A program made the position numbers and the translations under genes. Positions 2,696 through 33,617 of a DNA stretch of 61,931 nucleotides are shown here, piece after piece. The notes under the pieces were generated by a model. It was given only the letters and a program-made list of their open reading frames with translations, was not told the DNA's origin and ran no database searches. The first letter of the stretch is position 1. Each line of letters begins with the position of its first letter. This DNA is from Candidatus Micrarchaeota archaeon (GTDB lineage: Archaea > Micrarchaeota > Micrarchaeia > Norongarragalinales > SBBD01), in the NCBI GenBank assembly GCA_043803465.1, contig JAZDKC010000040.1:1-61931 (forward strand), given 5' to 3'.

Positions 2696-2983
2696 TTACC
2701 AGCCCGAGCTTCGGACAATTTGGAAACCTGAAAATTTCCCCTCCGCTTTTTTCCATTCCGCAAAAATTTTGCCAACCCGGATATAGCCATCCTTCACTTC
2801 CAGTGCTTTTAGGAATTTTTTGAGTTCGTCATCCTCGCCTTCAGCCTGCACTTCAACTGTCCCATCCGCCAAGTTCCGAACTAAACCGGTTACTGCAAAC
2901 CTCCTCGCAATCGTGCTGACCGTGTACCTGAAGCCCACGCCTTGCACATCTCCGTGCACTATTGCTTTCAGAAATTTTTTCAT
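2696..2983 (-). CDS. acyP: Acylphosphatase
   Basis: It carries the acylphosphatase signature VHGDVQGVGFRY and G.V.N..DG.V. The start is placed at ATG 2983 (MKKFLKAIVHG, ~95 aa), although the ORF stays open up to 3049. Confidence 0.85.
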   Translation of the reverse strand: MKKFLKAIVHGDVQGVGFRYTVSTIARRFAVTGLVRNLADGTVEVQAEGEDDELKKFLKALEVKDGYIRVGKIFAEWKKAEGKFSGFQIVRSSGW

Positions 2984-3045
2984 GCTTGCCACTATCGGAA
3001 TTAAAAGAAAAAAATGAGAAAAAACTATTGGAACGGAAACCCCCA

Positions 3046-4593
3046 TCATCCCCGCTCTTCCCTCCTTCGCTGCCCCTTCCTTTCCGGATTCCTATCCATG
3101 TACATTTCGTCGGACCGGAAGTCCATATTGTCCATTTCCTTCGCGCCCAGGGCACGCTGCTGCCCGATTTCCCAGCTCCGCTTTGCGAGCTTCTCAACCC
3201 ATTCGCGGTTGAGGGTGCGGTCATTCAGATTGTAGAGTTCCCGCGTATTGTGCACGGTGTCGATCAGATCGCGCAATGCTTTGGGAGTTTCATCATAGCG
3301 CTCGTTGAACCAGATTGACTCCGTGGGCCTCGAGATGTTGAGCCTTTGGTTCTCGTGCTCCAATCCCCTGTTCGCTCCATGCAGGAATGAGGAAACCGCG
3401 ATTTCCTTGAGCACTTCAAGCGTCGGCTGGTCGTACCTCGTCCTCCATGAGTACTCGCTCAGGCCCCTATCATAGCGTTTCATTATGCTGCTGATTATTT
3501 TTTCGTGCGCATATCCCGGAACCGGCGCAGGCACGGTTTCCTGCTGGGCCTTCTTCCTGCTAATCTGCCCGATCGGGGGTTGGGGTACGGTATCTGTGGG
3601 ACGCCCCCGTTCCACTCCGGTTCTCAACCGATTAATCCTTGCCTGCTCCTTTTCCCATTCGGCCGTTGCCGCGGGATTGTAGGTCAGCATGTTTCTTCCA
3701 TCAACAGGCAAACCTTCTTTTTCTCCAGTCACTCCGCCTTTTCTCGGCGACACATTTCTTGTCTTCTCCCAATTCAATTTGCGGGCAGTATCTGGCGTAA
3801 CCATTAATGCGTTTCCGGGCCCTTTTTCTCGAGCCCCGTCTTTCCGAGCCGTAGCATCCGCTTTCTGACCTCCTCTGATGCCTGCAGCCGCCTCCTCGAT
3901 TAACTGCTGTCTACTTGTTCCGGTTACACCAATCCCTGCTTTTGAGGCCGCCCTGGCTTGGCCCATTGCCTTAAAGAGCTCATAAGGATCGTATGCCGGC
4001 CCCGATTCGGATTGCCCTCTTGGAATTCTCCTTACCGGGCCTGCAGAAACAACTATCCTTCCTCCTTTCCCCGTAAGGATTCTTGCCGTGCGGCCATATT
4101 TTACCTGCTCGGTCGGCGTAACCGCAGCTTTTTTGCGCCGCAGCCTTTGCGTGCGCTTGAAGTCCTTAATTTTATCAACCACCAAATCGACGACCTGCGC
4201 GGCATGCTCCTTGGGAATTCCCACATCGGCAGGCAGCGCTTTTGCGATTTGCTTCCTGGCATAGGGGGATGTCAGCGTCCTCACTCCGCTTTTAAATCCG
4301 CCCTTCTTTTCAAGGTATGAAAAAACGTTATTAGCTAGCCTTTTCCGGTCAGTGACGTTCAGGGGCACGGCCCTAATTTTTTCGACGACCAAATCCAAGA
4401 CCTGCTTCCTTTGCTTCATATTTAGTACAGATGCAGGAGGCAGCATTTTTGCCATTTCCCTCCTTGCATAAGAAGAAGTCAACTCGTTTACATTGCCTTT
4501 CAATCCGCCGCCCTTTTTTAAATCGATATAAACCCTATTGGCCCATTTGATTTGTTCATCTTTATTCCACCTTACTAGTTTCAATGCAGCCAT
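3046..4593 (-). CDS. Hypothetical basic protein with an N-terminal internal duplication
   Basis: 515-aa ORF. Two ~70-aa repeats are visible (..KKGGGLKGNVNELTSSYARREMAKMLP...QVLDLVVEKI.. and ..KKGGFKSGVRTLTSPYARKQIAKALP...QVVDLVVDKI..). No recognised family. Confidence 0.6.
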   Translation of the reverse strand: MAALKLVRWNKDEQIKWANRVYIDLKKGGGLKGNVNELTSSYARREMAKMLPPASVLNMKQRKQVLDLVVEKIRAVPLNVTDRKRLANNVFSYLEKKGGFKSGVRTLTSPYARKQIAKALPADVGIPKEHAAQVVDLVVDKIKDFKRTQRLRRKKAAVTPTEQVKYGRTARILTGKGGRIVVSAGPVRRIPRGQSESGPAYDPYELFKAMGQARAASKAGIGVTGTSRQQLIEEAAAGIRGGQKADATARKDGAREKGPGNALMVTPDTARKLNWEKTRNVSPRKGGVTGEKEGLPVDGRNMLTYNPAATAEWEKEQARINRLRTGVERGRPTDTVPQPPIGQISRKKAQQETVPAPVPGYAHEKIISSIMKRYDRGLSEYSWRTRYDQPTLEVLKEIAVSSFLHGANRGLEHENQRLNISRPTESIWFNERYDETPKALRDLIDTVHNTRELYNLNDRTLNREWVEKLAKRSWEIGQQRALGAKEMDNMDFRSDEMYMDRNPERKGQRRREERG

Positions 4594-4817
4594 TCAATCA
4601 CCTGAGCGCTGAGGGAAATCATGATACTTACGAATGGGTATTCTCAAATAAAAAGGGCGCGGTTGGGGTTTATGAGCGAGAATATCGCGTGGTTGGAATT
4701 ATTTCCGTCCAACCCTTCCGGGGATTTGCGGATAACGCCATATTCCGAAGTTGTTCTCGGGGTATTTATATTCTGCAAGCAAAAGCGTTTTAAAGCGAAA
4801 AATGCATCGTATTCGAT

Positions 4818-5939
4818 ATGGCACACGGAGCCGAAGGGCATGAAGGCATCAGAAGGGAGGAGGAGAGGGCGTTCGCGCCGGAAAAGCCCAGATGGTTCCA
4901 GAGGACCGTGAGGCGCTGGGTGTCGTGGCCGAAAAGGTTCCTGTTCGGAACGCAAGAACGGCAGAAGCGCATCATCAATGAGGATTTGCGCAGGTTCAGC
5001 GAAACGGAGGGCGAATTCGAGCACACCGCTTCGGAAGCCATCGCGCATACGGAGGGATTTCGGTTCGCGAAGAAGGAGGTGTGGGAACACGTCAAGGAGG
5101 ATTTGCGCGCATTGCTTGCAAAGGATATTTCCCATTTCGAGGGCAGGTTGGCGTTGCTGGATGAGGAAAACGCCCACCAAAGGCCGATGATAGCCCATTA
5201 TAATAAAATCATAAATTCCCTCGAGGGGTTTGGGCCGCATAATGCCTACAGGAGCGCAGTCCAGGCGGATTTGAAGGTCGCCGAGAACAGCAGGTTCGGC
5301 TATTCCTATTTGGGGAATTCGGTTTACGGCTCGCAGAGATGGGGTCAGGGATTCAATCCGATTAATTGGATTGGGACAACCGAAAGCAGGGTGAGGCGCA
5401 ATCCTGCGAATTTCGGAAGGGAGCTGCTTAGGGTTTTTGGAAGCAGAAAAGAGCGCATGCAGCCGATAAATTACATTAAAACAATCGGGGCGCTGAAGAT
5501 GCGGGAAATGGATGCGCTTGCTGCGCAGAAAAAAGCCGAGGAGCATGCGCCGCCAGCTGCAATGCCGGTTGAGCATGCCGAGGAGCAATTCTCACCTGAG
5601 GAACGGGCGGCTATCGACCATTATGTAAGCCAGGGCATGCCAAGACCGCAGGTTGAAGAGGCCATACGGCACCAAAGGGCTCAGGCTGCAGGAAATACTT
5701 TGAGGGCAGATGAGAGCAATACTATAAGGGAAACGCCGGAGAATACGCCAAGGCATGGAAGAGTCTACTCTCCTGATGAAATTATCGATATTAAAAGGAC
5801 CGCCCGCAAAGCAGGGATGAACATCAGTGAAAAAAGAAGGCGAGAAAAGGCCAGATTCGCAAGACAGGTCGCTGCTGAACTAGCAAAAATGGCTTTGAAA
5901 AATCGAGGGCGGCAAGGAGACCTGGCTTATCAACCGTAA
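4818..5939 (+). CDS. Hypothetical charged protein
   Basis: The 373-aa ORF has protein-like composition. The competing minus-strand ORF 4644..5588 is Arg/Leu/Pro-rich and looks like an antisense artefact. TATA-like GGTATTTATATT lies ~45 nt upstream. Confidence 0.5.
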   Translation: MAHGAEGHEGIRREEERAFAPEKPRWFQRTVRRWVSWPKRFLFGTQERQKRIINEDLRRFSETEGEFEHTASEAIAHTEGFRFAKKEVWEHVKEDLRALLAKDISHFEGRLALLDEENAHQRPMIAHYNKIINSLEGFGPHNAYRSAVQADLKVAENSRFGYSYLGNSVYGSQRWGQGFNPINWIGTTESRVRRNPANFGRELLRVFGSRKERMQPINYIKTIGALKMREMDALAAQKKAEEHAPPAAMPVEHAEEQFSPEERAAIDHYVSQGMPRPQVEEAIRHQRAQAAGNTLRADESNTIRETPENTPRHGRVYSPDEIIDIKRTARKAGMNISEKRRREKARFARQVAAELAKMALKNRGRQGDLAYQP

Positions 5940-5960: not shown

Positions 5961-8900
5961 CTACTTCGTGATCTTCGACTTGGATAGCATGTCGTTCAGC
6001 GCCCAGTCGGGCTGCGCGTCGAGCTTCTCGCTGATCGAGTCGAGGTATTCTCCGGTTATGGATCCGGGGCAGTAGCCATTGACTTCGCACGCGTCCCGCA
6101 ATTGCTCGTACATGTTCCTTGCAGCCACAGCAGCATTCGGCTGCTGCACGGGCGTTTCATCAGATGGTGCTGCAGGCAGATCGGTTATCTTATCCACCAC
6201 TTGCGTAAACACTTGATCGGCTGAAATGTCCATCTTCGTCACCGGCGCCTCGATTGTCAGGAAGAGCGATTTGTAGAGTTTTTCGGGGTCGATTCCCTTG
6301 TTCACTCCTGTGATTAGCGTATAGCCCTGCTCTGTCGCGTATTGCCTGCCCTTGATCAGGTAAATGCAGATCGAGCTGTCAGCAGGATCGCACATTGCGC
6401 CCGAATCCAGCGCATTCAGGCAGCCTTCCTCCTCTCCCAGGTTCCTTGCGCAGATGCGCCTCATCGATGCCTTGTCCCATGAAAGCGCACTGCCTTCATC
6501 GACATTGTAGGAAACAAGGTGGTGCGGGAACCTATAATCCAGCGCGCCCTGCACAGGCCTCACATCAACGTGGAACAGCAATGGGATTAGAAGTGAAATT
6601 ATGTTTCGTGATTTCCTGAACCGCTCCAGCTCGCCGTATTCGCCGCCGAAGAATCTCCTGAGCCTGCCCTTCGCCGCCTGCTCCTGCCTCTTGACTTCGC
6701 CGACCAGTTTGTTTGCCTGCTCCGTAGTGAGGCCTAGTTTCGCATATGCACCCGCCGGATCCGTCAATGCCTCCACATTCAGTAGTGCCTTCGCCTTCGA
6801 GGATAAAACTGCCGGCGTCCCAACGCCCTTGAATCTCCTGCTGAGAGTGTCAATGGCTTTCTGGGTCAATTTTTCCTCTTCCGTGAAGAAATCATCCGCA
6901 TAGGAAATCAATGTTTGATCCACAGCGGAAATATCCTGCGCAATTTCACCATACCTAAATGCAGCTGCGCCGGTCAATTTGCTAGGAGGCCGTTTACCGG
7001 TCAATGCGGTATGCTCCTTCTTCAGCGCCTCCCTTTCGGATCTCAGGAGTTTCATTTCCTCCACTATATTGCCCCTCTTCTTGGCAGCATCGGCAAATCC
7101 CTTCGGGTCCATTTGCTCGTACGCTTTTGTGAGTTCGTTCTGTCTCATCATGAAAGCCTCTGGATTCTGTGTAAGATCCTTCTCGAATTGCGCCATCATT
7201 TCCGCTTTTGTGAGCCCCACCCTCTTTGCGTTTAATTGCTGGTCGTACCAATCCAGGTTTGTAGTGCCGGTAGCCGTATCAAAACCAAGCGTCTGCGCCG
7301 CAGCCAGAGTGCCGGCAACGGGCGAATTTGCCTCCATTATCCTGCCGGCCAAGGTGCTTGCATCCTTGATTCCCATCCCCGACCTCGTGAGATAGTCCAT
7401 CAGGTAGGCACGGCTTCCGAATGTCTTTGCGACCTTCAGGCCGCCGTACATAGCGGGTGTCGAAGTGTAGGTCGGCGTATCATCGCCGGTTACAAAATTA
7501 TAGCCGGCGGTCACGCCGTCGATTGCAGTTGTCAGGGCGACAAAACCCACCAATTCGAATAGGAATTTTCCCCCGAATGCGGCGCCGAATTTCAAGCCCT
7601 CGCCGCCGCCGGGAATTGCGGTAATCAATAATTCGGTCGCACCTGCAAAGCCGCCAGCCAAGCAATTGTTCGCAACTTCGCAAACCGGTGTTTTGGAGGT
7701 ATCTGCAGCCCTGAATGTAAGCCCTTGATAAATCGAGGCGCCGCATAAGGCGGCGGTTGTGGAAAGCCCATAAGCCGCTTTGATTGCCATTACTTCATTC
7801 CATACTGCGCTCGGCGCACCTACTCCGGTCAACGCCTTTCCGAAATTGGTCAGCAAACTCCCGCCCAGTGCGAGTGATGCAACGCCCATTGTCGCAACCA
7901 CGCCGCCGGTCATGTAGCCTGCGCAATACCATCCGGCCTCGTACGGTTCCGCCACGGCCATTGCTTCAGAACGGTCTATCTTGTAGAGCGTCCGGTAGAG
8001 GATATTCAGGTTCTGGATGTCCACCCTGTTGGCTGTACGCTTGTAGGGCCCGACAGTGAACAACTGCACCTTGTCAAGCAGGCCTATCAGCCCGCCGGCT
8101 TCGCTGCCGCTATCATCCCCGATGTTCCATCCGATTCCGGTTGACAGCTCGCGGCCCACAACTCCTTCCGTATTTCCGCGCTCCGCTACAAGCAGCGCCG
8201 CATTTGCAAGGGTGAAATTGCATTCCATGCCCGGCGTAAGCCTGAATTCAATGTTCGAATATTTCAGCCAATCGGCCTTCTTGGAGGGAGCTGTTGCAAA
8301 TTTGCAGATGTCGAGCCTTCCCTCCAGTATGTAAACGCCGCAGCCCTTCACATCAACAGTAGAGGTTGTGATCTTGAACCCGTCGTCGGATTGCTTCAAT
8401 ATGGAGTCGAATTCGGATTTAGAAAGCTCCAGCGACCGCTCCGAATCGAGCAGCGTTTCCGAATTTGCAGCCTGCAGGACGATTGATTTCTTGTAACCGC
8501 CATCGCTAAGGGTTTTCTCGCAGAATTTCGTGAGATCATTCGGGTATTCGGCATCCGACGCAAGCGTTTCAACAAGCGTCTTGAATTCTCCTGCAAATTC
8601 AGTGAATGCTGTTTCCACCTGTACAGAGGTGCAGAAATTGGTCTGGCATTTCATCACTGATGCATCCAAAGTTGTGAACACCTGGGGCTTGGGGCCAACA
8701 GAGGAGGGCGCATCATCCGCAAACGATTGCGCATTCACATCTGAATAAAAGCGGTCCACATAGCCGGACAAGGTCACCTCCGCCTCGGCTGTTGCCGCCT
8801 CCTGCGGTGCCAGGTCTCCGAGTGGTGAGGCGGAATACAATGCCTTGAAATCGGGTTCGGGCTCGAATACCTCGATGTTCACGTACCTTATATACTCGTT

Positions 8901-11900
8901 AATATCCCCGGCGGAATCGCTCGGAGTAATCTTCAGGCGGCCCTTGCCTTTCTTCTTTGAAACGCACTTGAGGACAGTCCCCTTGCCGGGTTCGAGCGTG
9001 CCTGTTGAAGGCGAGCAGCTTACCAATTGCGTGTCGCCGGTTACCGAGTAAGTGATTGCCTTGTCAAGATTGTTCACAGCCGCAATTGCACGCTCGTGAT
9101 TGATGCTCTTGAAGGAAAGCTTCATGAGCGCATTGTCGAACCTCACGTTCTGCTGGTCATCCGCATAATTGACATAGAAGCCGTTCATCATCTTCCGGAA
9201 TTGCTTGAACAGCGAGCCGCTGCATGTGCCCGTGCCCTTATCAAGCTTGATCTTTATGCCGATCTTCTCGGTCACCGCCTTCCCGTTGTATTCTCCAAAC
9301 AGGGTCACATATGTTTCGGAGTCGGGGTCGGTGACGCGGCCGTTCGCGCTTTCCAAAATGCAGCCGTCCTCATCCAGATATTGCGACGGCACGCCAATGT
9401 CGAGCCGGAAGGATTGGTATTTGCAGTTCTGCTTTGCAGGATCCACGGATTTGATGATCATCTTCGGATCCACTTGCCATGCGATTGGGCGGGTGACGCT
9501 CTTGAGCGCTCCATCCAGCTCCCCGCTAACTGACTCGCCGGTGTAGCCCACGTACCTCTTCTCGAGCGTCGTGCGGCTCATCAACGGATCGTCATCCAGC
9601 CTGAACTCCACCGCAAGGTTGGAAAAGCCCCAGTTCTGCACGCACACATACCTGGCCTGCGAGCCCTGTGCGTTCGTGTCGTCAAATTCCAAATCCAAAA
9701 GCTTGTCTGCGGTATCCGGCTTCCCGCCTTCAGGAGGCGCCTCGAATGCGACAAGAGGGCTGCTTGCATCCGCGATGAACGCGAATTTGTCCTTCTTCGC
9801 CTTGGTCTCGCAAAGTTCAAATGAAATCTTGTCTGCTTCCCTTACGACAATTTCCTGCGGCTTTTCGGGGTTGTTGGAAGTGCCCGGAAGCAGCCTCGCA
9901 TCCTCCTCGAACACTATTGATTTCACGGATGGAAGCTCATATTCGCGCGGCGCGTCTTCCCCGGCAATCTCGATCTTTATGTTCTTGCAGCCTCCCAGAT
10001 TCGCAATCTTTTGCTTATCATCGAATGTTTGGGCGGTTGAAGGCAGCGATACAGAAACCTCCTTCCCGAAAACCGCATGCAGCCAGTATTTGCCGTCATC
10101 ATCCTTCTTGATGGTTGCGACAATCGTCATGGTGCCCGGGATCGTCAATGTTTTCGGATCCGAGATGAAATCAGCGGAGGTGAAATCATATTGTTTCATC
10201 ATGAGCCTATTGCCCAGGAACGAGAACTCGTCCTTCTGCTCGTGATCCGCAAGCTTTATCTCAGCCGCTTCCGCAAACCGGAATGAATGATAAATCTCCT
10301 CTATTTTCTGCTTGTATGGCTCGAGCTTCGGCTGCAGGAATACGTCCCCGGGGATTTCAGCCATTACGGGGAATGAGAACCGCATCTCAAAATCGCGGCC
10401 TTCGGGAGTCGGGTCTATCTGCGTGAACGTGACGCCCTTCAATGAATCCAATTTCGCAAGGGCAATGTCATTGTAATTGTCGTTCCTCTGGAATGCGAGG
10501 CGCTCGACAGCGTATATCACCCTATAGCCCTCGTTTTCATTCCGTATTGAATTGGGGGGCGTGAGGAGCGCATTCGCGAGCGGGAAGTGGTAGGTCGTCT
10601 GTTCCGGGATCTTGATTGTGAACGATTCCGTCCCGTATTCGGATTTTTCAACCTTGATCATGCGGTTGCCAGCTCCAGGCGCGTTCGCGGAGAATGTGAT
10701 TTCAGTTCCTGCAGCGATCGTGACCTCCTTTGCCTCGAATGCCTTCTCATTCACTTCGACGTTCTCCATCAGCATCCTGTTGCCGTTCTCAAATTGTATC
10801 TGCGTCAGCGCGCCTTTCCTCTTCACTGCTGCCGAGGAGGGCAAATTGATTGTAATGCTTACGGGCAATTTCCTCGTGATCCCTACAACCCCGAAATCAG
10901 TAGGCTGGATGGTAATTGGCGCGGCCGGAAGCGCCTCTATCAATCTTGAGCCATCCGCATATTCGAGCCCGACCCTAGTGGTGCCCTGCGCAAAAAGCAG
11001 CTCATAAACTTCGGTTGAAATGGAGCGCGCCTGCGTTGCGCCGGCATCGAGCGCGAGCGCGATGCGGTCGCTCTTCGGAACCTTGAATTGCAGCTTGAAT
11101 GGCAATTGCAGGTGCAACTCGCCGTTCATCCCCTCCTGCGCATAAGGCGGCGGGATGCGGACAGCTGTTGCAGCCGGGATTGTAATTTTTCTTTGTTCAT
11201 TGAACAGGTCCCCGCTTCCACCGGTTGCAACGGGATCAGTTGAGGAGCGTGAATCCGGCGGCAATGTGATTGTCGTTCCCGAATCAAACTGAATGGCTCT
11301 GGAGCCGGTATAATCATCCGTCCTTATCCGGACCCTTTCTTGAATGACAAAAGTGGTGTCGACGGGGAAGTAGACTTCAATCGAGTCCTGGGAATTCGTG
11401 AAGGGGGTGAGCTGTATTCCGATGTAGGTGTTCGGCGGGATTGTCGCTCGCCTTTCATTGGAGCTTCTGCCCCGGACCAATGGAACCGAGGATGGGAAGT
11501 ACAAATCAAAATCCTCAATGCTTGCGATCTTCTGGCTGTCCTTCTGGGAGAATTCGGTTTCAGGCTCAAAATCAATGAAGGTGGTGAATGGGAACGCAAG
11601 CTTGTAGGAACTTGTTGATAATGACCGCGCATATGGGGACAAACCGGTGGTGCTAAAACCAGTGTAGCCAATCGGCTGGAGCATCGGTGTTTGCTGCACG
11701 TATTTTGGCGATGCCTCGATGAAAACGCCTGCTGGCACTATTATATAGCTCCCCCCTCCGGATGTGACCGCAGGGAATGCTGGCTGATTGGCGTATGACG
11801 AATATTGGTTCGCACTGCTTGTCAATTGCGCACCTGCCCCGAAAATGAACCGTTCCTTGGAGGGCAATTCTATCAGGATGGTGCCATCTGCATTGTACTT

Positions 11901-14900
11901 TGTTTTTGTGTTCGCGGGCAATTGTGCGGTTAGGGAAACCGGAAGGGTAACTTGCAGCGCATTTTCAATCGTGCAGGTTTCAGTCGAGGCGACTGCAACC
12001 TCCGTGGTTGCCGTTTTCTTCGAGTTGATCCCGTTGCTGGAGGCGTAGAAATCGATTTTTCCCTTGAACGTCTCTTCCTCGAATTTGCAGGATTCGGTTG
12101 ATGTCGCGCGGCCGTAAACAGTGAATTCAGCTGTCTCGCCGATATCCAAATTCTTTGAAAGCGGTTCGACGTAAACATTCGGCGAGGAGGATTGGTGGTT
12201 GACAAGGATCGGGTACGGCGCATTGTTGGCGATGATGATCGTCTGCGATTCCTGCTTGATTTTCGGCGGCGCTACTGAGAAACTAAGGGAATCCGGCGAT
12301 ATGCTCCAAAGCGCGTTCAGGTCGTCCTGCTTGAAATCGGTCGTGACGGTGAAGGGGATGTCCTCAGTCTGCTCGGATGCGCCGAGCTTTGCAACTATGC
12401 GAACCTTTCCGGTGATTTTCTCCTTCAATACCTGCGGCTTGTTCGAGACCTTGATGATCAGGTCCGAAATTTCGGCCTCGAGATTGTTGGTATCCCGCTC
12501 AAGCCCCTTGACAGTTGCACCGCCCTTCTCCAAGGTTACATCCGTGTATTTTCCGGTTGTGGAAGTCAGCGTATAGGTTACCTTCAGCTCGTTTGAGAGA
12601 AGATTTTCAACATTGAACGCCGAGACCTCGATTTGATCGGAAGAGGTGGAGATTGAAAGCGCCCGGGTATCGAGCTGGAAAAGCGTGGTCGCCTGCGTCT
12701 GTATTGTGCCCGCCTTCACCTTGAAGCCTTCTGCTGTTACACGGAAGGAAACAGAGCCTATCGAGGGCGGATTCACATTTTCAATCACATAGGTGATGGT
12801 GCCATCCTTTGCCTCCTGCAATTCCGCCTCGAGCACCGCGCCGCCAAGCGCATCTGCTCCGCTTCCAAGGGTCACGAAAGCGTTCTTCAACGGCAGGTTG
12901 AGCGAGTCCGTCACGGTGAACACAACACGGTTTTCCTTCAATGCCTTCAATATCTTCCCGCCGCCCTTCTCCACTATCACATTAAATGAGACCTTCAAAT
13001 CCGGCTTCTCCCCGACGATGCGGAGCGACAGCGGCTTTGTTATCGTGCTTTCCCCGCTTTTTACCGATAATTGCAAATCGATGTTGTTGACGAGCCTTCT
13101 GGCTTGGAGGGTGAATCCGCCCTCTGCATTGTCCGAGGATGTGGAGAGCGACAAAATCTGCCGGTTCTCGGTTGTTTTCAATACGGCCTTGGAGGCACCC
13201 GAAAGCCCTTCGGTGAGAGAGATAGTTTGGTCATCCAATGGCGCGGACAATTCAACTGTCGCCCCCTTTGGTGCAACGATCTTGAAGTTCAATTTGAATG
13301 TTTCGGAAATCGGCGCCTCAAAATTATCCTCAGCCGTGCCTGAGCTTCCCTCGAAATTGCTCTGCAGGCAGATCCCGTTGTCGCATTTGCCCTCGAAGGA
13401 TATTGTGAGCGATTGGGCCTGCATATTTGCAAGGAACGCGCCACGGGGCGCGGAATTGTCGATCGGGTCCCGCAGGACCTCCTTGTCAGTAAAGAACGCC
13501 GACCTGTATTGCAGTTCCACCTTCCCATTCGAAACGGCGCGCGTCCTGAATTGGACGCTCACCTCCTTGCTGCCTTCAAAGGGCTGGAAATCAAAATGGG
13601 CATATTTGTAAGCGTCAGAATCCACGTCCGCGAGGTTGAGCGATGCGGCTGCCGAAGGCGTTTCCGTGCCCTCGATATTCGGCTGCAGGGTCGCAATTGC
13701 CGACGCATCCGTTGAAGTGCCCTTCGTGACAACGGCACCGACCGCATCATAACCGATTATCTCCGCTTGCTCGTTCTCCAAGGCCACACCGGCATTTCCA
13801 ATCCTAACCTGCACCTCAACCCGCGTTATTTTAACTTTCGGCCGGTTGATTACAAACCTTGCGTTATAAGTCGTCGAGGGTGAAAGCGTATTTACCTGCT
13901 CGCCTTTCAAGTTGAAAACCCCGGAATATGCGATCTTCGTTTTCTGCGCGATTTCCGAGAGCATGATCCCGAAGCTGACCTTGTTGTCGATGTTGGGCTT
14001 CACCTCGAATTCGCTCGAGGTAAAAAGGTCGTATTTGTTCGCGCTTACTATTGCGACATAGAAGCCTTCCTGCAATTGCGCGGTGCACCTGCCGGCCTTG
14101 GTTGTGCAGCTTGCAATGGGGGAGAACTCCACATCCGAAGGCGAGAACTCCACCTTCGCATTGTCCACATTCTTGCCTGTGAAGTGGTCCTTCACCAAAA
14201 CGACTGCTCGGCCTTTCGCGGGCTTCAACGCGACTTTCAATAAATTGATTCCCGTTTCCTCGCCGGTGCCGGCAAGTGAGAGCTCAACAATGCTGCTCAT
14301 GCCGTTCCTTCCGTTGAAGGATGCCTTCGCATAAATTTTCACAAGCGGCAATTCTTCATAGCTGGCAATGCCATCATTGCCGGCGATCTTGTCAATTGAC
14401 CCGACAGGGGTTCCATCCTCATAGAAAAGCGAAACTGCTGATTGCGGAACCGCATCCCCGTTCTGGTTCTCCACCTGCACCTTCAATTTTGCGGAGTTGG
14501 CGGTGCTTGCGGATTCCATGTAAACGGTGTAGCTGTTGCCTTTTTCCGCATTCTGGAGGGTTGCAGGCAGGAAGCCGGGCTTTACAACAGTTATATAATA
14601 CTGGCCGCTTCCGACATCGTTGAAAAGCGCAACGCCGTCCATCGGATTGCTCTCCCCTACCTTCGTGAATTTTTCATCGTATAGCTTTGCTACCGGATTG
14701 ACAATTTGCGAATCGCCCATGTCGAGCACAATCACCTTGATCGCCTTGAGCTCCGCTTCCGGGATTTTGTCAAGCGCCAAAAGGAAGTTTGTCTCGTCCT
14801 CGATTGTTTTCTCAGCGGATTTGACCACATATCCCTGAAGGCGTGCAACTGCCTTCACAATTTTCCCTATCGCCAGTTCCTGCGGGCTGATCTCCCCGTT

Positions 14901-15776
14901 CTCCCCGGTTTTCAGATTGGTGAATATTTTCGTGTTGGTTACCGAATCGATAATATCGACGGAAACATCCTTCAATGCCCTTGCAGTCGCAGCATCCGTG
15001 ACATGCACGCGCACTTTTCCATTTATGATCTTGTCCCTTGGCCTTAATGTAATTGAGATGCTCTCGTCGTTCTCCTTCAAATAAATGGTCCGGTTTTCCT
15101 TGTTGTATCCTTGCGCCTCCACTTTCACAAAAAATTCCGTATTCACGGCAAGATCGGAGTATGAGACGGCAAGCCCGGGTTTTGGCGAGCCCGGAACTGA
15201 AAGCCTGTCAGGACCCTCGAACAAATAAATTTGCGCGCTTTCCCCGCTTCCCAGTCCTTTCAAATTGACCGTCAGGCTCACCTTGGGCTCGATTAACGGA
15301 GCGGAAAGGGCGAGGATGAAGGTGGATTTGGTCGGTGTGACTGCAATGCGGTCACTTTCAAAGTTCAATGACTCTCCCTGGAAATCCGAAGCCGCTACAA
15401 GGAATGCGGTTCCTATTTTGATCTTTTCAAAAGTGACTTTTCCATCCTCGTCGGTAGTCGCTTTTTCCGGCGAGGGCACGTCATTGCTTTCGGGGGTCAG
15501 CATTACCTCGGTGTTCGCAAGCGGCCTTCCGGCCGAATCCTTTAATGTGAGCAGGATCGAGGTTTCCTTCGGCGCGAAAATGCTCACCTGGCCGCCTCCG
15601 AGCGTGAGGTAGAGCGTGCCGCCAACTAGGAGCAATAGCAAAACCAAAAAGAAGGGCATCGCGGGGATCCCTTTTTCCTCGAGCGAATCCGAGATGCCGC
15701 GCAGAGGCAGGCCTTTCTCATCAGACCATTCCAGCAGGGATTCCCACTTCTCCTGAAGGCTTTCCGCTATTCCCAT
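5961..15776 (-). CDS. Giant (3271 aa) membrane-anchored surface protein
   Basis: The ORF is uninterrupted. It has a short N-terminal cytoplasmic segment, a TM helix (MPFFLVLLLLLVGGTLYLTL), many beta-sandwich-like repeats of the carboxypeptidase-regulatory/Cna-B style (e.g. LTLKDSAGRPLANTEVML...DEDGKVTFEKIKIG), a Gly/Ala-rich hydrophobic cluster near nt ~7480-7960, and a ~500-aa C-terminal region with coiled-coil-like segments. Confidence 0.9.
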   Translation of the reverse strand: MGIAESLQEKWESLLEWSDEKGLPLRGISDSLEEKGIPAMPFFLVLLLLLVGGTLYLTLGGGQVSIFAPKETSILLTLKDSAGRPLANTEVMLTPESNDVPSPEKATTDEDGKVTFEKIKIGTAFLVAASDFQGESLNFESDRIAVTPTKSTFILALSAPLIEPKVSLTVNLKGLGSGESAQIYLFEGPDRLSVPGSPKPGLAVSYSDLAVNTEFFVKVEAQGYNKENRTIYLKENDESISITLRPRDKIINGKVRVHVTDAATARALKDVSVDIIDSVTNTKIFTNLKTGENGEISPQELAIGKIVKAVARLQGYVVKSAEKTIEDETNFLLALDKIPEAELKAIKVIVLDMGDSQIVNPVAKLYDEKFTKVGESNPMDGVALFNDVGSGQYYITVVKPGFLPATLQNAEKGNSYTVYMESASTANSAKLKVQVENQNGDAVPQSAVSLFYEDGTPVGSIDKIAGNDGIASYEELPLVKIYAKASFNGRNGMSSIVELSLAGTGEETGINLLKVALKPAKGRAVVLVKDHFTGKNVDNAKVEFSPSDVEFSPIASCTTKAGRCTAQLQEGFYVAIVSANKYDLFTSSEFEVKPNIDNKVSFGIMLSEIAQKTKIAYSGVFNLKGEQVNTLSPSTTYNARFVINRPKVKITRVEVQVRIGNAGVALENEQAEIIGYDAVGAVVTKGTSTDASAIATLQPNIEGTETPSAAASLNLADVDSDAYKYAHFDFQPFEGSKEVSVQFRTRAVSNGKVELQYRSAFFTDKEVLRDPIDNSAPRGAFLANMQAQSLTISFEGKCDNGICLQSNFEGSSGTAEDNFEAPISETFKLNFKIVAPKGATVELSAPLDDQTISLTEGLSGASKAVLKTTENRQILSLSTSSDNAEGGFTLQARRLVNNIDLQLSVKSGESTITKPLSLRIVGEKPDLKVSFNVIVEKGGGKILKALKENRVVFTVTDSLNLPLKNAFVTLGSGADALGGAVLEAELQEAKDGTITYVIENVNPPSIGSVSFRVTAEGFKVKAGTIQTQATTLFQLDTRALSISTSSDQIEVSAFNVENLLSNELKVTYTLTSTTGKYTDVTLEKGGATVKGLERDTNNLEAEISDLIIKVSNKPQVLKEKITGKVRIVAKLGASEQTEDIPFTVTTDFKQDDLNALWSISPDSLSFSVAPPKIKQESQTIIIANNAPYPILVNHQSSSPNVYVEPLSKNLDIGETAEFTVYGRATSTESCKFEEETFKGKIDFYASSNGINSKKTATTEVAVASTETCTIENALQVTLPVSLTAQLPANTKTKYNADGTILIELPSKERFIFGAGAQLTSSANQYSSYANQPAFPAVTSGGGSYIIVPAGVFIEASPKYVQQTPMLQPIGYTGFSTTGLSPYARSLSTSSYKLAFPFTTFIDFEPETEFSQKDSQKIASIEDFDLYFPSSVPLVRGRSSNERRATIPPNTYIGIQLTPFTNSQDSIEVYFPVDTTFVIQERVRIRTDDYTGSRAIQFDSGTTITLPPDSRSSTDPVATGGSGDLFNEQRKITIPAATAVRIPPPYAQEGMNGELHLQLPFKLQFKVPKSDRIALALDAGATQARSISTEVYELLFAQGTTRVGLEYADGSRLIEALPAAPITIQPTDFGVVGITRKLPVSITINLPSSAAVKRKGALTQIQFENGNRMLMENVEVNEKAFEAKEVTIAAGTEITFSANAPGAGNRMIKVEKSEYGTESFTIKIPEQTTYHFPLANALLTPPNSIRNENEGYRVIYAVERLAFQRNDNYNDIALAKLDSLKGVTFTQIDPTPEGRDFEMRFSFPVMAEIPGDVFLQPKLEPYKQKIEEIYHSFRFAEAAEIKLADHEQKDEFSFLGNRLMMKQYDFTSADFISDPKTLTIPGTMTIVATIKKDDDGKYWLHAVFGKEVSVSLPSTAQTFDDKQKIANLGGCKNIKIEIAGEDAPREYELPSVKSIVFEEDARLLPGTSNNPEKPQEIVVREADKISFELCETKAKKDKFAFIADASSPLVAFEAPPEGGKPDTADKLLDLEFDDTNAQGSQARYVCVQNWGFSNLAVEFRLDDDPLMSRTTLEKRYVGYTGESVSGELDGALKSVTRPIAWQVDPKMIIKSVDPAKQNCKYQSFRLDIGVPSQYLDEDGCILESANGRVTDPDSETYVTLFGEYNGKAVTEKIGIKIKLDKGTGTCSGSLFKQFRKMMNGFYVNYADDQQNVRFDNALMKLSFKSINHERAIAAVNNLDKAITYSVTGDTQLVSCSPSTGTLEPGKGTVLKCVSKKKGKGRLKITPSDSAGDINEYIRYVNIEVFEPEPDFKALYSASPLGDLAPQEAATAEAEVTLSGYVDRFYSDVNAQSFADDAPSSVGPKPQVFTTLDASVMKCQTNFCTSVQVETAFTEFAGEFKTLVETLASDAEYPNDLTKFCEKTLSDGGYKKSIVLQAANSETLLDSERSLELSKSEFDSILKQSDDGFKITTSTVDVKGCGVYILEGRLDICKFATAPSKKADWLKYSNIEFRLTPGMECNFTLANAALLVAERGNTEGVVGRELSTGIGWNIGDDSGSEAGGLIGLLDKVQLFTVGPYKRTANRVDIQNLNILYRTLYKIDRSEAMAVAEPYEAGWYCAGYMTGGVVATMGVASLALGGSLLTNFGKALTGVGAPSAVWNEVMAIKAAYGLSTTAALCGASIYQGLTFRAADTSKTPVCEVANNCLAGGFAGATELLITAIPGGGEGLKFGAAFGGKFLFELVGFVALTTAIDGVTAGYNFVTGDDTPTYTSTPAMYGGLKVAKTFGSRAYLMDYLTRSGMGIKDASTLAGRIMEANSPVAGTLAAAQTLGFDTATGTTNLDWYDQQLNAKRVGLTKAEMMAQFEKDLTQNPEAFMMRQNELTKAYEQMDPKGFADAAKKRGNIVEEMKLLRSEREALKKEHTALTGKRPPSKLTGAAAFRYGEIAQDISAVDQTLISYADDFFTEEEKLTQKAIDTLSRRFKGVGTPAVLSSKAKALLNVEALTDPAGAYAKLGLTTEQANKLVGEVKRQEQAAKGRLRRFFGGEYGELERFRKSRNIISLLIPLLFHVDVRPVQGALDYRFPHHLVSYNVDEGSALSWDKASMRRICARNLGEEEGCLNALDSGAMCDPADSSICIYLIKGRQYATEQGYTLITGVNKGIDPEKLYKSLFLTIEAPVTKMDISADQVFTQVVDKITDLPAAPSDETPVQQPNAAVAARNMYEQLRDACEVNGYCPGSITGEYLDSISEKLDAQPDWALNDMLSKSKITK

Positions 15777-15808: not shown

Positions 15809-15816
15809 TATATAAA
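15809..15816 (-). promoter_or_regulatory. TATA-box candidate for the giant gene
   Basis: The minus strand reads TTTATATA ~33 nt upstream of the ATG at 15776, in an AT-rich intergenic region. Confidence 0.35.
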
Positions 15817-15954: not shown

Positions 15955-16788
15955 TCAGGCCGCCGTCCTCTTCACAATAATTATCTCCTTCCTTCCCTGC
16001 CGGAACGGGACAATCAATTCGCGCTCCTCGACCTCGATCCTTTTTCCGGATCTTTCCGCGTAAACCACGAATTTCTTGCTTACTGGCAGGGATTCAAAAA
16101 ATGCGGTCCCATCTGCCGCTGTTTTTGAGGAATATTTTTCATCGAAAGTTGCGGCATCGGCAAGGAAAATTGTGGCATTCTTGAGGACATTGCCCTCCGG
16201 GGTCTGGATTGCGAGGTAAATGCCAACCTCCCTTGATTCGAATGCAAGGATTCCCACGGATATTATGGGAAGAATCGCCGCAATCGCAATTACAGCAACC
16301 AAAATCAATATCGGAAGAGGGGGCAATCCGTGCTGCGAGAATTTGCTTGAAATCCGGCTGAAAAAAGGGCCTTTCCTGTAAGAGTGGAAAACGGATTTTT
16401 TCGTGTAATATTGGGGCACGTATCCGGGCTGTTTTTGGGATGTTGCGCCTTGAGCTGCTTCCTTTTTGCCCGAAACGTACTTTTGCCTCGCCAATTCCAG
16501 CTGCCGCCTCTTTTCAATTTCCAAACCGATTTTTTCATTCGGAAAAGCAGCAGGAGGGCGGGAAATGGATTTTTCCATTTGATGCCTGGGAATTTGATGA
16601 ATGATCGAATCGGGGGCCTTTTCCGGATGCTTTTGGTGCCGCTCCGGAATATGCGTCCGGGCGTGTGATGCAAGCCTGCCTTCGGCTTTATTATTCGCGG
16701 CCTTATTTTCCCTGAATTCGAACTTCTTCGAATCGAGGATCATGCCTTTGATCCTGTACCGGATGCGTGCGAGGTGCTTGTTGGCCAT
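15955..16788 (-). CDS. Hypothetical single-pass membrane protein with C-terminal beta-sandwich domain
   Basis: 277-aa ORF with a basic, disordered-looking N-terminal half, a TM helix (LPPLPILILVAVIAIAAILPIISVGILAF), then a carboxypeptidase-regulatory-like segment (IQTPEGNVLKNATIFLAD...ADGTAFFESLP). It sits directly upstream of the giant gene on the same strand. Confidence 0.65.
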   Translation of the reverse strand: MANKHLARIRYRIKGMILDSKKFEFRENKAANNKAEGRLASHARTHIPERHQKHPEKAPDSIIHQIPRHQMEKSISRPPAAFPNEKIGLEIEKRRQLELARQKYVSGKKEAAQGATSQKQPGYVPQYYTKKSVFHSYRKGPFFSRISSKFSQHGLPPLPILILVAVIAIAAILPIISVGILAFESREVGIYLAIQTPEGNVLKNATIFLADAATFDEKYSSKTAADGTAFFESLPVSKKFVVYAERSGKRIEVEERELIVPFRQGRKEIIIVKRTAA

Positions 16789-31138: not shown

Positions 31139-33562
31139 ATGAAAATTGGTTTGCAAAATGTTCCGGGTATTTTTGTCGCGTTAATCGCATTTGCGTTGCT
31201 GATTAATTCCGCAAATGCGCTCACGCTCGTGCCCGAAAGCACTTCGATCACAAGCTGCATTTGCGAAACCAATTTGGTAAAGCTCGTTGCATCCAACCCC
31301 GCGGACTCAACCGAATCCGTATTGATGGCCGCCTCAGGTGCAAAGCCCTGGGTGATCCCCGGCCCGAAGGAATATAATTTATTGCCGCGCTCCTCAAAAG
31401 AGGTCACCGCGTTCGTGACTCCGGACTGCTTTGCCGTTCCCGGAAAATACGAAGTTGCGGTCACCGCAAAATCCGCCACCAGTTCTGCAACAGCAAAAAT
31501 CGGCGTGGAAGTTTTTGCATGCGTGCAATTGCCAAAGGAGCAATCGCTCAGCTTGTGCAGGGGCGAGCTGATCAATTCAAAGCTCGGGATTAGGAATATC
31601 GCAAGGGATGAGGGCAGGTCGTATGTGCTGTCCGTTTCATCAAAAAATGCGAATCCGAATGCGATCACCATTTCACCGAAAATTTACGTGGATGTCAATT
31701 CCGAAAAGCAGCTTGATTTTTCAATTGACGGAACTAACCTGGATGTGGGCAGCTACAATTTCGAAATCAAGGCGCAGGCGCTTTATGAGGCGACAAATGT
31801 TCCGACAACCGACATCGGCACCATGAATTTGATGGTGGAGGTCAAGAACTGCGAATCATTCGATTTGCAGGTGCCAGATACGATCGATGTGTGCGCGGGC
31901 GTTCCGACAATTTACAAGGCAAAGCTGGTGAACAAGGGCGCACCATCCGACGTGAAACTTTCATCCGATGCAAGCTATATTGCAATTAAGCCGGCAGCAG
32001 GAACACTCCATTACGGCGAAACCGCGGATGTGGAGCTGACGGTGAATGCACCGAAGGGGGAATATGCGGCAAAAATTTCCGCAAAATCGGATTTGAAAAG
32101 CGTCGAGAAGAATGTGAAGATCGTGTCGCGCGAGTGCTTTGGGGTTGAAATGCTAATGCAAGCGGACAAAGTCATCTGCTCCGAATACGGCGGGGAATAC
32201 GACCTGCTTTTGAAGAATCGGGAAACCCCCGCGGATTATGCGCTTTCAGTCGGCGGCATCGAGGGCGCAATGCTCTCGAAGGAAAAAATCACACTGGGCA
32301 AATCCGAAACCGGCAGCGCGAAGTTCACAATTCCAAAGGATGTTGCAAGCGGAACTTATTCTGCAACCTTGACGGCGGCATCAAAGGATGCGAAGGATGC
32401 GATCACAAAGGAATTCTCAATCCAGAAATGCTTTGATTTCAGGCTGGTTGGCCCAAGCTTGGAACTCTGCCCCTGCGAGGATGCGACTTTCAATTATGAG
32501 CTGATCAATTTCGGGATCAAGGACGACACATTCTCGCTTGTGAGCAAATCGGATTACCTCCAATTGAAGGAAACAAGTGTTGCCGTCAGGAGCAAGGACA
32601 AGGTGAAACTGTCCGCAACTGTTTCAACATGCAAGCTTGACAGCGGCAAATACAACGCGGTGATTTCCGCAAAATCGGATTCATATTCCTCAGCGCAAGA
32701 CAGCCTGAAGATCGATCTGGTTGTGAAGAGCAAGGAGCAATGCTATGGGATCGAGCTTTTGCCCGCGTCCACAAAAATTATTTCCGAGTGCGGGATCAAG
32801 AGCATGAGTGTGATGGTAATCAACAAGGGGACAAAGGAAGCGGCAATTTCGCTTTCTGCAACGGAGGGTTCGAAAGTGACCCCGGACAGCCTGCTTTTGG
32901 AGCCTGCTCAGAGCAAGGAGGTGTTCATAGTTGTTTTCCCCTCGCCATCAAGATGCGGAACGACCTTTAGTGTCAACATGAAGGCGGAGAGCAAAGGGAT
33001 CGTTGCAACCAAGCAATTTTCAGTCGAGATGGCGCCCGAAGAGAAGGCATCGCCAACTCCAATGATCACCGCAACCCCAAAACCGGCCTCGTCAGCCACA
33101 CCTGCACCAACAGGCGAGCAAGAGGAATTGCAGGCACTGATCAATTACTCGAATGAAACACTCTCGATTAGATCCGCTCCGGGCACCAGTATTGTCATTT
33201 CCGGAGAAGGCCAGCAGACAATGGAAAAGCAAACCGATAATGCCGGCCAGTTTGAGACCAAGCTTGGCGCAGGCACGTTCCTTGTGACCCTTTCGCGTGC
33301 CGGGTATAAGCCAGTGACCTTGCAGGTGAATGTGACTGGAAACCAGTCCGGAATTGGTGAAGGGCCTGCTGCTGGAAACCTCGGATCCATCCCGCTTCTG
33401 CTCGTGGCATTCCTGATAATTGTCGCAGCACTTTATTTTGTGCTAAAGCGCGGCGACAAGGAGGAGCCTGAGGGGGATGAAGAGGACGAGGACGAATCCA
33501 AGGAAGAAGAGGAAATCGAGGAAGTGAAGCCGAAGAGAGGCAGAAGGAGGAAGAAAAGCTAA
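31139..33562 (+). CDS. Large secreted repeat-domain surface protein with C-terminal TM anchor
   Basis: It has a Sec-type signal peptide (IFVALIAFALLINSANA) and about 6 repeats of a ~100-aa beta-sandwich unit with conserved Cys (CARDB/S-layer-duplication style). A Pro/Thr linker, a C-terminal TM helix (IPLLLVAFLIIVAALYFVL) and a highly charged tail follow. Confidence 0.8.
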   Translation: MKIGLQNVPGIFVALIAFALLINSANALTLVPESTSITSCICETNLVKLVASNPADSTESVLMAASGAKPWVIPGPKEYNLLPRSSKEVTAFVTPDCFAVPGKYEVAVTAKSATSSATAKIGVEVFACVQLPKEQSLSLCRGELINSKLGIRNIARDEGRSYVLSVSSKNANPNAITISPKIYVDVNSEKQLDFSIDGTNLDVGSYNFEIKAQALYEATNVPTTDIGTMNLMVEVKNCESFDLQVPDTIDVCAGVPTIYKAKLVNKGAPSDVKLSSDASYIAIKPAAGTLHYGETADVELTVNAPKGEYAAKISAKSDLKSVEKNVKIVSRECFGVEMLMQADKVICSEYGGEYDLLLKNRETPADYALSVGGIEGAMLSKEKITLGKSETGSAKFTIPKDVASGTYSATLTAASKDAKDAITKEFSIQKCFDFRLVGPSLELCPCEDATFNYELINFGIKDDTFSLVSKSDYLQLKETSVAVRSKDKVKLSATVSTCKLDSGKYNAVISAKSDSYSSAQDSLKIDLVVKSKEQCYGIELLPASTKIISECGIKSMSVMVINKGTKEAAISLSATEGSKVTPDSLLLEPAQSKEVFIVVFPSPSRCGTTFSVNMKAESKGIVATKQFSVEMAPEEKASPTPMITATPKPASSATPAPTGEQEELQALINYSNETLSIRSAPGTSIVISGEGQQTMEKQTDNAGQFETKLGAGTFLVTLSRAGYKPVTLQVNVTGNQSGIGEGPAAGNLGSIPLLLVAFLIIVAALYFVLKRGDKEEPEGDEEDEDESKEEEEIEEVKPKRGRRRKKS

Positions 33563-33617
33563 ATTCCTTTTTTTATATTTTTAAAAAGTCTAATAGTCGT
33601 GGAGGCAGCAATAGCGA

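Follow-up and report, generated by a model that had tools for sequence, protein, structure and literature searches.

A giant surface protein of one Micrarchaeota order, with a probably extracellular, sequon-free distal module and a conserved PsbP-fold neighbour

On which side of the membrane does the far end of a 3271-amino-acid (aa) archaeal envelope protein lie, and what might such a protein do there? The question is raised by a contig of a Candidatus Micrarchaeota archaeon (GenBank assembly GCA_043803465.1, contig JAZDKC010000040.1, positions 1 to 61,931; this whole stretch of 61,931 nucleotides (nt) is called the window below), in which one open reading frame (ORF), P0001, was initially annotated as a giant protein with an N-terminal anchor, a long array of beta-sandwich domains, a second membrane attachment through Gly/Ala-rich hydrophobic segments and a ~500-aa intracellular tail. 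Comparison of homologous sequences argues that the tail is not cytoplasmic and that the C-terminal end is most likely outside the cell, because glycosylation sequons are absent from it, its cysteines fall into conserved groups and the hydrophobic segments that precede it are only marginally hydrophobic. The gene is accompanied across one Micrarchaeota order by a small gene for a membrane-anchored protein of the PsbP/Mog1 fold, here called the partner.

The ORF itself is sound. It runs without interruption and occupies 15.8% of the window (first given as 16%), and the window, which is the entire contig C40 of a 1.40 Mb genome in 91 contigs that is 90.7% complete, also holds archaeal housekeeping genes (two family-B polymerases, SMC and TtuA). 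Mis-assembly of repeats, which the initial annotation had named beforehand as a finding that would overturn the ORF, was ruled out by two observations: Tandem Repeats Finder reports only four tandem arrays of 15-23 nt each in the P0001 DNA, and the protein is colinear over its full length with 16 homologues (2745-3716 aa, 19-54% identical to the window protein); colinear homologues of this length range are present in 13 fetched loci. The TATA-like box ascribed to the gene is also present, as a candidate read from the sequence (Table 1).

The archaeal oligosaccharyltransferase works at the outer face of the membrane, so avoidance of N-X-S/T sequons is meaningful only in exported sequence. The genome encodes an STT3/AglB homologue (42.8 bits, above the cut-off), and its general background is neutral, with 1470 sequons found and 1375 expected in 637 ORFs of 250-1400 aa (ratio 1.07). 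From aa 2601 to the end (522-822 aa per homologue) 17 homologues together contain no sequon at all, where residue shuffling predicts 57.9 ± 7.0 (200 shuffles, minimum 40), and the tail alone has none where ~45 are expected. Control motifs in the same region occur at 42 versus 57.1 expected (reverse motif), 61 versus 60.3 (N[ST]) and 48 versus 57.2 (Q-x-[ST]). A second set of 18 C-terminal frames, 16 of which come from genomes not used in the first, contains 2 sequons versus 76.0 ± 7.9 expected, and both of these are in one frame whose region begins 100 residues earlier. When sequons are mapped onto the window protein, most are found at aa 100-800 and none beyond aa 2600 in any homologue; in four distant homologues the ectodomain has about as many as expected (10-22 versus 12-16) and the C-terminal part still none.

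The cysteines point the same way. Of the 30, 27 are each shared by 76% or more of the 17 sequences; most stand close together in groups, and these groups run on through the Gly/Ala-rich cluster (residues 2618, 2678, 2699 and 2705, invariant) and the tail (3109, 3119, 3129 and 3137, invariant; 3230 and 3236 are conserved at 59%). Such grouping is characteristic of exported domains held by disulfide bonds. That the four invariant tail cysteines form a zinc ribbon is unlikely, since they are singly spaced and make no CxxC pairs.

How strong are the supposed membrane segments? The four Gly/Ala-rich segments do exist as first described, at aa 2615-2765, and their positions are kept in all 17 aligned homologues; the 200-aa block that contains the 170-aa hydrophobic stretch is 15% Gly and 16% Ala. 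Their strength is marginal: on the Kyte-Doolittle (KD) scale they peak at only 1.5-1.6 in the window protein and reach 2.15 in one homologue, compared with 2.3-3.0 for the N-terminal anchor. On a Hessa-type scale, insertion of the best C-terminal segment would cost an estimated +0.8 to +4.2 kcal/mol in all 17 homologues and insertion of the anchor -0.8 to -4.4 kcal/mol in all 15 (-2.3 in the window protein), and the four cluster segments of the window protein come to +2.8, +5.2, +6.1 and +4.7 kcal/mol. Segments this marginal would not be expected to stop translocation.

These results bear most directly on the topology originally proposed, an envelope-spanning protein whose second attachment leads into a cytoplasmic tail that signals or gates a pore. 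The charged, partly helical region after the hydrophobic cluster is compatible with it, and the highly conserved cytoplasmic ~40 aa at the N-terminus do suggest some intracellular interface. Set against these are the missing tail sequons on a neutral background, the cysteines without a zinc pattern, segments too weak for stop-transfer by the Hessa-type estimate and the count made in that annotation itself, one N-terminal plus four C-terminal segments, which would put the C-terminus outside. We therefore regard a cytoplasmic tail as very improbable, and the second attachment as originally drawn lacks support.

The distal region was modelled by AlphaFold2 from profile A1, an alignment of 18 sequences of the giant's C-terminal region (mean predicted local distance difference test score (pLDDT) 64.5). 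The model has an alpha/beta part at aa ~2520-2630 (pLDDT 72-92), four long helices of 34-38 residues in the cluster, an antiparallel helical hairpin at aa ~2885-2985 (pLDDT 74-87) within an otherwise poorly conserved, indel-rich linker, and an end domain at aa ~3068-3271 (mostly pLDDT 84-94) that holds the four invariant tail cysteines. The Cys-rich terminal domain and partly coiled tail of the initial annotation are thus borne out as structural elements. A short hydrophobic stretch before the motif V-D-V-R-P-V is modelled as the end of a long helix that enters the end domain, and not as a transmembrane helix. Archaeosortase processing signals of the PGF-CTERM or PEF-CTERM type, which we take to consist of a sorting motif, a transmembrane helix and a basic tail at the very end, were not found: the last ~130 residues are hydrophilic and have no terminal hydrophobic stretch. 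Pfam gave no family common to two of the 18 C-terminal sequences, a PDB profile search gave nothing below E 0.1, and Foldseek comparison of the C-terminal model with the PDB and BFVD gave nothing at E ≤ 0.001. In the ESM Atlas the best match to the C-terminal 772 aa scored 0.84 (unnamed clusters), with PT-TG and Tle1-like_C at 0.83-0.84, all below the level that we count as more than a lead.

Because an even number of C-terminal segments leaves the end domain outside, the sequon and cysteine data agree also with a double anchor in which the four helices re-insert into the producer's own membrane, forming a ~2550-aa loop with the four-Cys (Cys4) domain on the outer face, as an envelope tether or scaffold. 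The conservation of four hydrophobic helices in all 17 homologues would suit such an arrangement, as would a partner that sits in the same membrane and a gene that is order-wide, single-copy and colinear, like that of a structural component (below). Nonetheless, the segments are weak next to the anchor, an invariant cysteine lies within the second segment and others at the starts of the first and third, and the modelled helices are longer than a bilayer requires; for these reasons we consider a double anchor unlikely.

At the other end of the protein the first 50 aa are the best-conserved block (56% mean identity), comprising a charged motif that ends in EKGIP and abuts the transmembrane segment. 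This segment (aa 42-60, KD 2.33 as a 19-residue mean) is strong in 15 of the 15 homologues that include the N-terminus, and the N-terminal anchor behind a short cytoplasmic N-terminus stands as first annotated. The ~2400 aa of beta-sandwich repeats assigned to the ectodomain stand only in part. PF13620 (CarboxypepD_reg) matches aa 76-129 with 42.9 bits (cut-off 32.3), a membership that extends to the stalk only, and it exceeds the cut-off in 10 of 11 homologues, always within the first ~1000 aa. Self-comparison of 90-aa alignment windows by hhalign gave 11 pairs with a probability of at least 93%, all inside aa 61-600, among 989 pairs scored up to alignment window 1051 (later windows were not compared with each other). 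Repeats of ~90 aa are therefore present at aa ~61-600, but aa 1000-2520 have no family match: PDB profile searches with aa 1000-1700 and 1700-2520 returned nothing below E 0.1, there are only weak hints of immunoglobulin-like (Ig) folds of the MSP/PapD/HYDIN type, and the ESM Atlas match of aa 1150-2600 to HYDIN/VesB Ig-like domains (0.84) is again below the level of more than a lead. Altogether the distal two thirds of the giant have no Pfam, PDB or literature match.

A beta-sandwich stalk is typical of adhesins, and the giant might be a purely extracellular structural or adhesive fibre, its Gly/Ala region forming the small-residue core of a soluble helical domain and its partner serving as an assembly factor or docking site. 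Disulfide-like conserved cysteine groups along the whole length, the fact that no similarity to membrane-active families was found and the sharing of the N-terminal motif and part of the stalk with other giant surface ORFs of the genome (below) all fit such a fibre. It leaves unexplained, however, why C-terminal sequons are absent in all lineages, even where the stalk tolerates them, and why a 170-aa Gly/Ala stretch should stay hydrophobic throughout the order, and to us it seems a rather doubtful account.

How widespread is the giant? Profile A1 was searched against 401 genomes sampled across the phylum, namely the genome of the window (G000), 49 others of its order and 351 from outside the order. 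It matches 46 of these, G000 and 45 of the 49, and none of the 351 outside; the matches sit in open frames of ~1900-5182 aa, mostly at one locus per genome. The C-terminal 772 aa are rare by single-sequence searches as well: 1.84 billion cluster representatives yielded no more than 10 proteins at E ≤ 0.001, a word-indexed search gave 3 proteins, the query among them, and 22 of 41 related genomes had a match. A search with A1 for longer proteins returned the query alone, by a method that is prone to crowding, so that this result is not evidence of absence. Named database relatives are all from Candidatus Micrarchaeota archaeon and are labelled hypothetical, Ig-like or carboxypeptidase-regulatory-like. 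On this sampling the gene is order-specific, nearly universal and single-copy, and would encode a lineage-defining surface fibre of one Micrarchaeota (DPANN) order. In another family the C-terminal module is found in frames of 5182 and 5172 aa (G011:C2 and G021:C8, loci L041 and L042), and the length of the giant family therefore varies more than two-fold.

The true conserved neighbour of the giant was passed over in the initial annotation, which stressed a 277-aa protein and two basic ORFs instead. A homologue of the partner adjoins the 3' end of the giant gene in 13 of 13 fetched loci, and profile A2, built from 14 partner sequences, matches 46 of the 49 other genomes of the order (E 1e-11 to 1e-83); outside the order it matches 5 of 351 genomes, marginally (E 1e-4 to 8e-4) and in its N-terminal part only. 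Forty-five of the 46 genomes with a giant match also have the partner, which in 43 of these 45 follows the giant on the same contig and strand after a gap of 7-3328 nt, counted from the giant's last matched residue (<1 kb in 37); in the remaining two genomes the matches are on different small contigs. The AlphaFold2 model of the partner (pLDDT 89.2) has a transmembrane helix at aa 9-34, a second helix and an alpha/beta sandwich. Foldseek matches this model to 25 PDB chains at E ≤ 0.001, which places it in the PsbP/Mog1 fold; the best is cyanobacterial PsbP (2xb3, E 7.6e-6, target-normalised TM-score 0.67), and other matches are Tsi3 (3wa5_B, 8.8e-5), LpqN (6e5d, 6.6e-4), EagT6 (6xrf_G, 8e-3), DcrB (6e8a_A, 9.9e-3), MTC28 and Mog1. 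At the sequence level the PsbP Pfam families do not reach their gathering scores (PsbP_2 in 2 of 14 sequences, best E 0.0054; PsbP in 1 of 14, E 0.15). Prediction of a three-chain complex (pre-module plus hydrophobic part, C-terminal domain, partner ectodomain) gave a score of 0.00 against a mark of 0.32, which is no evidence on binding in either direction. Unlike the giant's distal module, the ectodomain of the partner retains an N-x-[ST] sequon, at one position of the alignment (aa ~160-166) in 8 of 14 homologues.

What could be the function of this pair? We tentatively propose, as a reading that is quite possible though somewhat short of an even chance, an N-terminally anchored fibre whose tip is free of glycans, inserts into membranes under certain conditions and is handled by the PsbP-like partner. 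The signal-anchor holds the N-terminus in the cell's own membrane behind the ~40-aa cytoplasmic motif, and the rest of the chain shows signs of being exported and braced by cysteines, with a stalk that tolerates glycosylation sites in some lineages and a distal ~670 aa that never carries them. The distal ~900 aa form a conserved module made of the Cys-rich alpha/beta domain, the four Gly/Ala-rich helices, the variable hairpin linker and the Cys4 alpha/beta end. Being too weak to stop transfer, the hydrophobic helices would be exported and kept soluble or folded, and contact might cause them to insert into the membrane of a target (host), where they would serve as an anchor, a pore or a means of fusion; sequon avoidance would keep the tip free of glycans for insertion or for passage through narrow openings. 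At the membrane of the producing cell the partner may hold the tip, act as its chaperone or protect the producer from it, much as other members of its fold class bind partner proteins. A row of ~25 domains, each of ~100 aa and roughly 4 nm long, would give the ectodomain considerable reach. It could span far beyond the 20-25 nm pseudoperiplasm given for a cultured micrarchaeon in the cited sections of bioRxiv 10.1101/2021.04.28.441871 and the symbiont-host S-layer distance of 11-16 nm given in those of PMC11329633.

Several points weigh against an inserting tip. The modelled cluster helices have low pLDDT (31-76), and comparisons by fold and by family found nothing to connect them with a pore former, translocator or fusogen. 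Colinear conservation throughout an order is no less to be expected of a structural part of the envelope than of a weapon aimed at particular hosts, and with its partner anchored in the producer's membrane the C-terminus could equally remain at the surface of that cell. The argument from sequons presupposes that selection against glycosylation caused the depletion, and the homologues sampled are relatives and not fully independent samples. Moreover, giants of the family to which the window belongs have few sequons anywhere in the ectodomain (0-5 versus 16-21 expected; the window giant has 2 sequons in total), and therefore a lack of glycans is not special to the tip in the window protein. A bolder version, which we think improbable but state for its consequences, is that the distal module is a DPANN device for breaching or fusing the host membrane: glycan-free, disulfide-braced, fusion-peptide-like helices would be carried on a ~100 nm fibre, the partner would be their chaperone or immunity protein, and host contact would open a cytoplasmic connection for feeding. 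The giant would then work like a contact-dependent delivery or fusion device that has a protective partner.

Table 1. The giant gene, its predicted domains and its neighbours in the window.
Feature	Position	Strand	Remarks
Partner gene, 210 aa	2007..2639	-	transmembrane helix at the N-terminus, extracellular domain of the PsbP/Mog1 fold; two Cys invariant, including the C-terminal residue
117-aa ORF	2696-3049	-	between the giant and partner genes
Two basic ORFs, apparently a strain-specific insertion	3046..5939		3046..4593 (-, 515 aa) and 4818..5939 (+, 373 aa); no homologue at relatives' loci
Giant protein gene P0001, 3271 aa	5961..15776	-	ORF list and translation, colinear homologues
C-terminal alpha/beta domain, aa 3031-3271	5964..6686	-	conserved; invariant C3109, C3119, C3129, C3137; L-L-F-x-V-D-V-R-P-V; no sequons
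Helical linker, aa 2781-3030	6687..7436	-	poorly conserved; includes antiparallel helical hairpin, aa ~2885-2985
Gly/Ala-rich hydrophobic module, aa 2611-2780	7437..7946	-	four predicted long helices; four invariant Cys; no sequons
Cys-rich alpha/beta domain before the hydrophobic helices, aa 2377-2610	7947..8648	-	six Cys conserved 94-100%
Ectodomain with conserved Cys pairs, aa 601-2376	8649..13976	-	fold(s) unmatched; 25-52% column identity to window protein
Stalk, about six tandem ~90-aa prealbumin/CarboxypepD_reg-like beta-sandwich domains, aa 65-600	13977..15584	-	PF13620, hhalign
N-terminal transmembrane anchor, aa 41-62	15591..15656	-	strong hydrophobic segment
Conserved cytoplasmic N-terminal motif, aa 1-40	15657..15776	-	W-x-x-[FL]-L-E-W..EKGLP..LEEKGIP, directly before anchor
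Candidate TATA-like box TTTATATA	15809..15816	-	33-40 nt upstream of the P0001 ATG; read from sequence
277-aa single-pass protein	15955..16788	-	upstream of giant; transmembrane segment and first domain resemble giant's N-terminal part

In the window the giant and partner genes are 3.3 kb apart, with the 117-aa ORF and the two basic ORFs between them. The 117-aa ORF, whose motif is presumably that of an acylphosphatase-like protein, is kept between giant and partner in 5 of 13 related loci. The two orphan basic ORFs exist as described but are not conserved: neither has a homologue in the 13 loci, a paralogue in the genome or a Pfam or significant PHROG family, and among the 10 other genomes of the family P0016 is found in none and P0017 in one (G001), weakly, on the contig that bears that genome's partner gene. 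They are, as far as these comparisons go, a strain-level insertion outside the conserved system, and this insertion may be what is left of a small mobile element or virus. In G003, a genome of the same genus, the interval between the giant and its neighbours is about as wide (3.3 kb).

The 277-aa protein upstream of the giant, said to carry the same type of beta-sandwich, does have a transmembrane segment and resembles the N-terminal parts of giant homologues (25-26% identity in BLAST). Its CarboxypepD_reg match is sub-threshold, though (18.6 bits, cut-off 32.3), and BLAST finds it among the upstream ORFs of only 3 of 13 loci, all of the same genus. In two other families of the order its place next to the giant is taken by a second large protein of 1062-1816 aa, encoded directly upstream (L017:14744-19750, L020:338-5788, L021:65-3253 and L022:22-4836). 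Elsewhere in the window (31139-35018, + strand) an 807-aa protein with a sub-threshold CarboxypepD_reg match lies directly upstream of a secretion ATPase of the T2SSE/VirB11 type (PF00437, E 1e-34), which makes this interval another candidate surface-structure locus on the contig.

The genome encodes further giant ORFs. At least four (1650-2487 aa; C23:783-7376, C76:1964-9427, C88:1-6643 and C53:10931-15883, with fragments on C89 and C91) begin with a module like that of P0001, an acidic/aromatic helix, [ED][KSN]GIP and a transmembrane helix, and L020:338-5788, one of the large upstream proteins of another family, shares it. The module has the look of a cytoplasmic signal, peculiar to this lineage, for the sorting or docking of giant surface proteins. 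By sequon content the giant ORFs of the genome fall into two classes, where ordinary ORFs are neutral as given above. The sequon-rich group (C74:16556-33232, 5558 aa; C32:37567-48027, 3486 aa; and ATG frames of ~1670-1680 aa on C71 and C32) has 391 observed versus 143 expected, 176 versus 60, 99 versus 39 and 95 versus 28; the sequon-poor giants on C40, C76, C88, C53, C17 and C19 have 2 versus 22, 5 versus 18, 3 versus 14.5, 4 versus 8.5, 3 versus 15 and 2 versus 9. This division suggests a heavily glycosylated coat beside surface machines that may be deliberately left unglycosylated.

The pair bears on the molecular basis of host attachment and exploitation by DPANN archaea, for which the cited sections of PMC11329633 describe envelope structures, seen by cryo-electron tomography of a cultured micrarchaeon, that are still to be matched to proteins. 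With its giant fibre and small PsbP-fold partner, the locus supplies two definite candidates shared across the order, from which predictions follow as to topology, lack of glycans, insertion into lipid and binding of the partner. The original view of P0001 as a giant envelope protein of a host-dependent small-genome archaeon that is more than a simple adhesin has gained from the comparison, since the protein is order-wide and single-copy and has a distinct C-terminal module and a dedicated partner gene. Giant surface proteins as such are known; what is new here is a giant surface protein of a host-dependent archaeon with an undescribed distal module and an undescribed partner. Counting sequons across homologues can, in addition, assign compartments and regions that must stay naked in uncultured archaea, which is useful where topology predictors are ambiguous. 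If the tip were truly a host-membrane-breaching device, it would represent a new class of cell-cell membrane-penetration machinery, in one archaeal order.

How does the giant compare with known systems? A literature search found no paper on proteins of this kind in Micrarchaeota, although supplementary proteomic tables, which were not examined, might list homologues. The Micrarchaeota S-layer protein SLP_Mh is, in the cited sections of bioRxiv 10.1101/2021.04.28.441871, a ~101 kDa protein with PF05123 and many predicted glycosylation sites, and it is glycosylated. On that description the giant resembles it as a Micrarchaeota envelope protein with an N-terminal hydrophobic segment, but it is ~3.3 times longer in residues, has no PF05123 match and has only 2 sequons, and it is not the described S-layer protein. 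At E ≤ 0.1 the Pfam matches of the giant do not include PF05123 (S_layer_N), and nothing in its genome matches that model either; this model is insensitive in the phylum (17 of 401 genomes matched), and we do not conclude from so rare a detection that the order lacks the Micrarchaeota S-layer family. The family that holds most of the ~910-960-aa PF05123 frames (f19, 11 of 76 genomes) has the giant in none of its 76 genomes.

CdiA is a filament that presents a distal region whose C-terminal part probably enters the target membrane only after contact, and a small protective protein is encoded immediately downstream. The giant likewise has a filament-borne distal region and a small gene immediately downstream, but no relation in sequence or fold was found: the giant is without two-partner secretion (TPS) or filamentous haemagglutinin (FHA) repeats and without a recognisable toxin domain, its downstream protein is membrane-anchored and of the PsbP fold, and the system is order-conserved and not polymorphic. 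The partner shares its ectodomain fold with PsbP, Tsi3 (a type VI secretion system immunity protein), LpqN, DcrB and EagT6, several of which bind another envelope protein; it differs from PsbP/Mog1-fold proteins in its N-terminal transmembrane anchor, its two invariant cysteines, its archaeal origin and a sequence similarity below family thresholds. Set beside pairs such as Eag (DUF1795) proteins, with EagT6 and the Tse6 N-terminus, or those of the Tsi3 type, giant and partner have in common a resemblance at the level of fold and a conserved adjacency only, and their binding is putative. Viral fusion proteins, phage tape-measure proteins and alpha-helical pore-formers or translocators have membrane-active Gly/Ala-rich helices of moderate hydrophobicity, which are soluble on export and insert only on contact, and the giant's cluster appears similar in its Gly/Ala-rich moderate hydrophobicity and its flanking cysteines and helical hairpins.

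The adhesins of the RTX/LapA type are giant proteins anchored at one end, with a repeat stalk and a functional distal tip. Like them, the giant has one anchored end, a beta-sandwich stalk, specialised domains at the far end, a length of at least 3000 aa and an architecture typical of surface-attached life styles. It differs in being archaeal and anchored by an N-terminal transmembrane segment, in lacking RTX sequences, a type I secretion system signal and DNA-level repeats, in having stalk repeats over only ~600 aa and in a distal module that is hydrophobic, sequon-free and unmatched to any family. By the tests applied the giant belongs to none of the families compared, and by analogy it would work most like the giant adhesins that are anchored at one end and carry a functional tip at the other.

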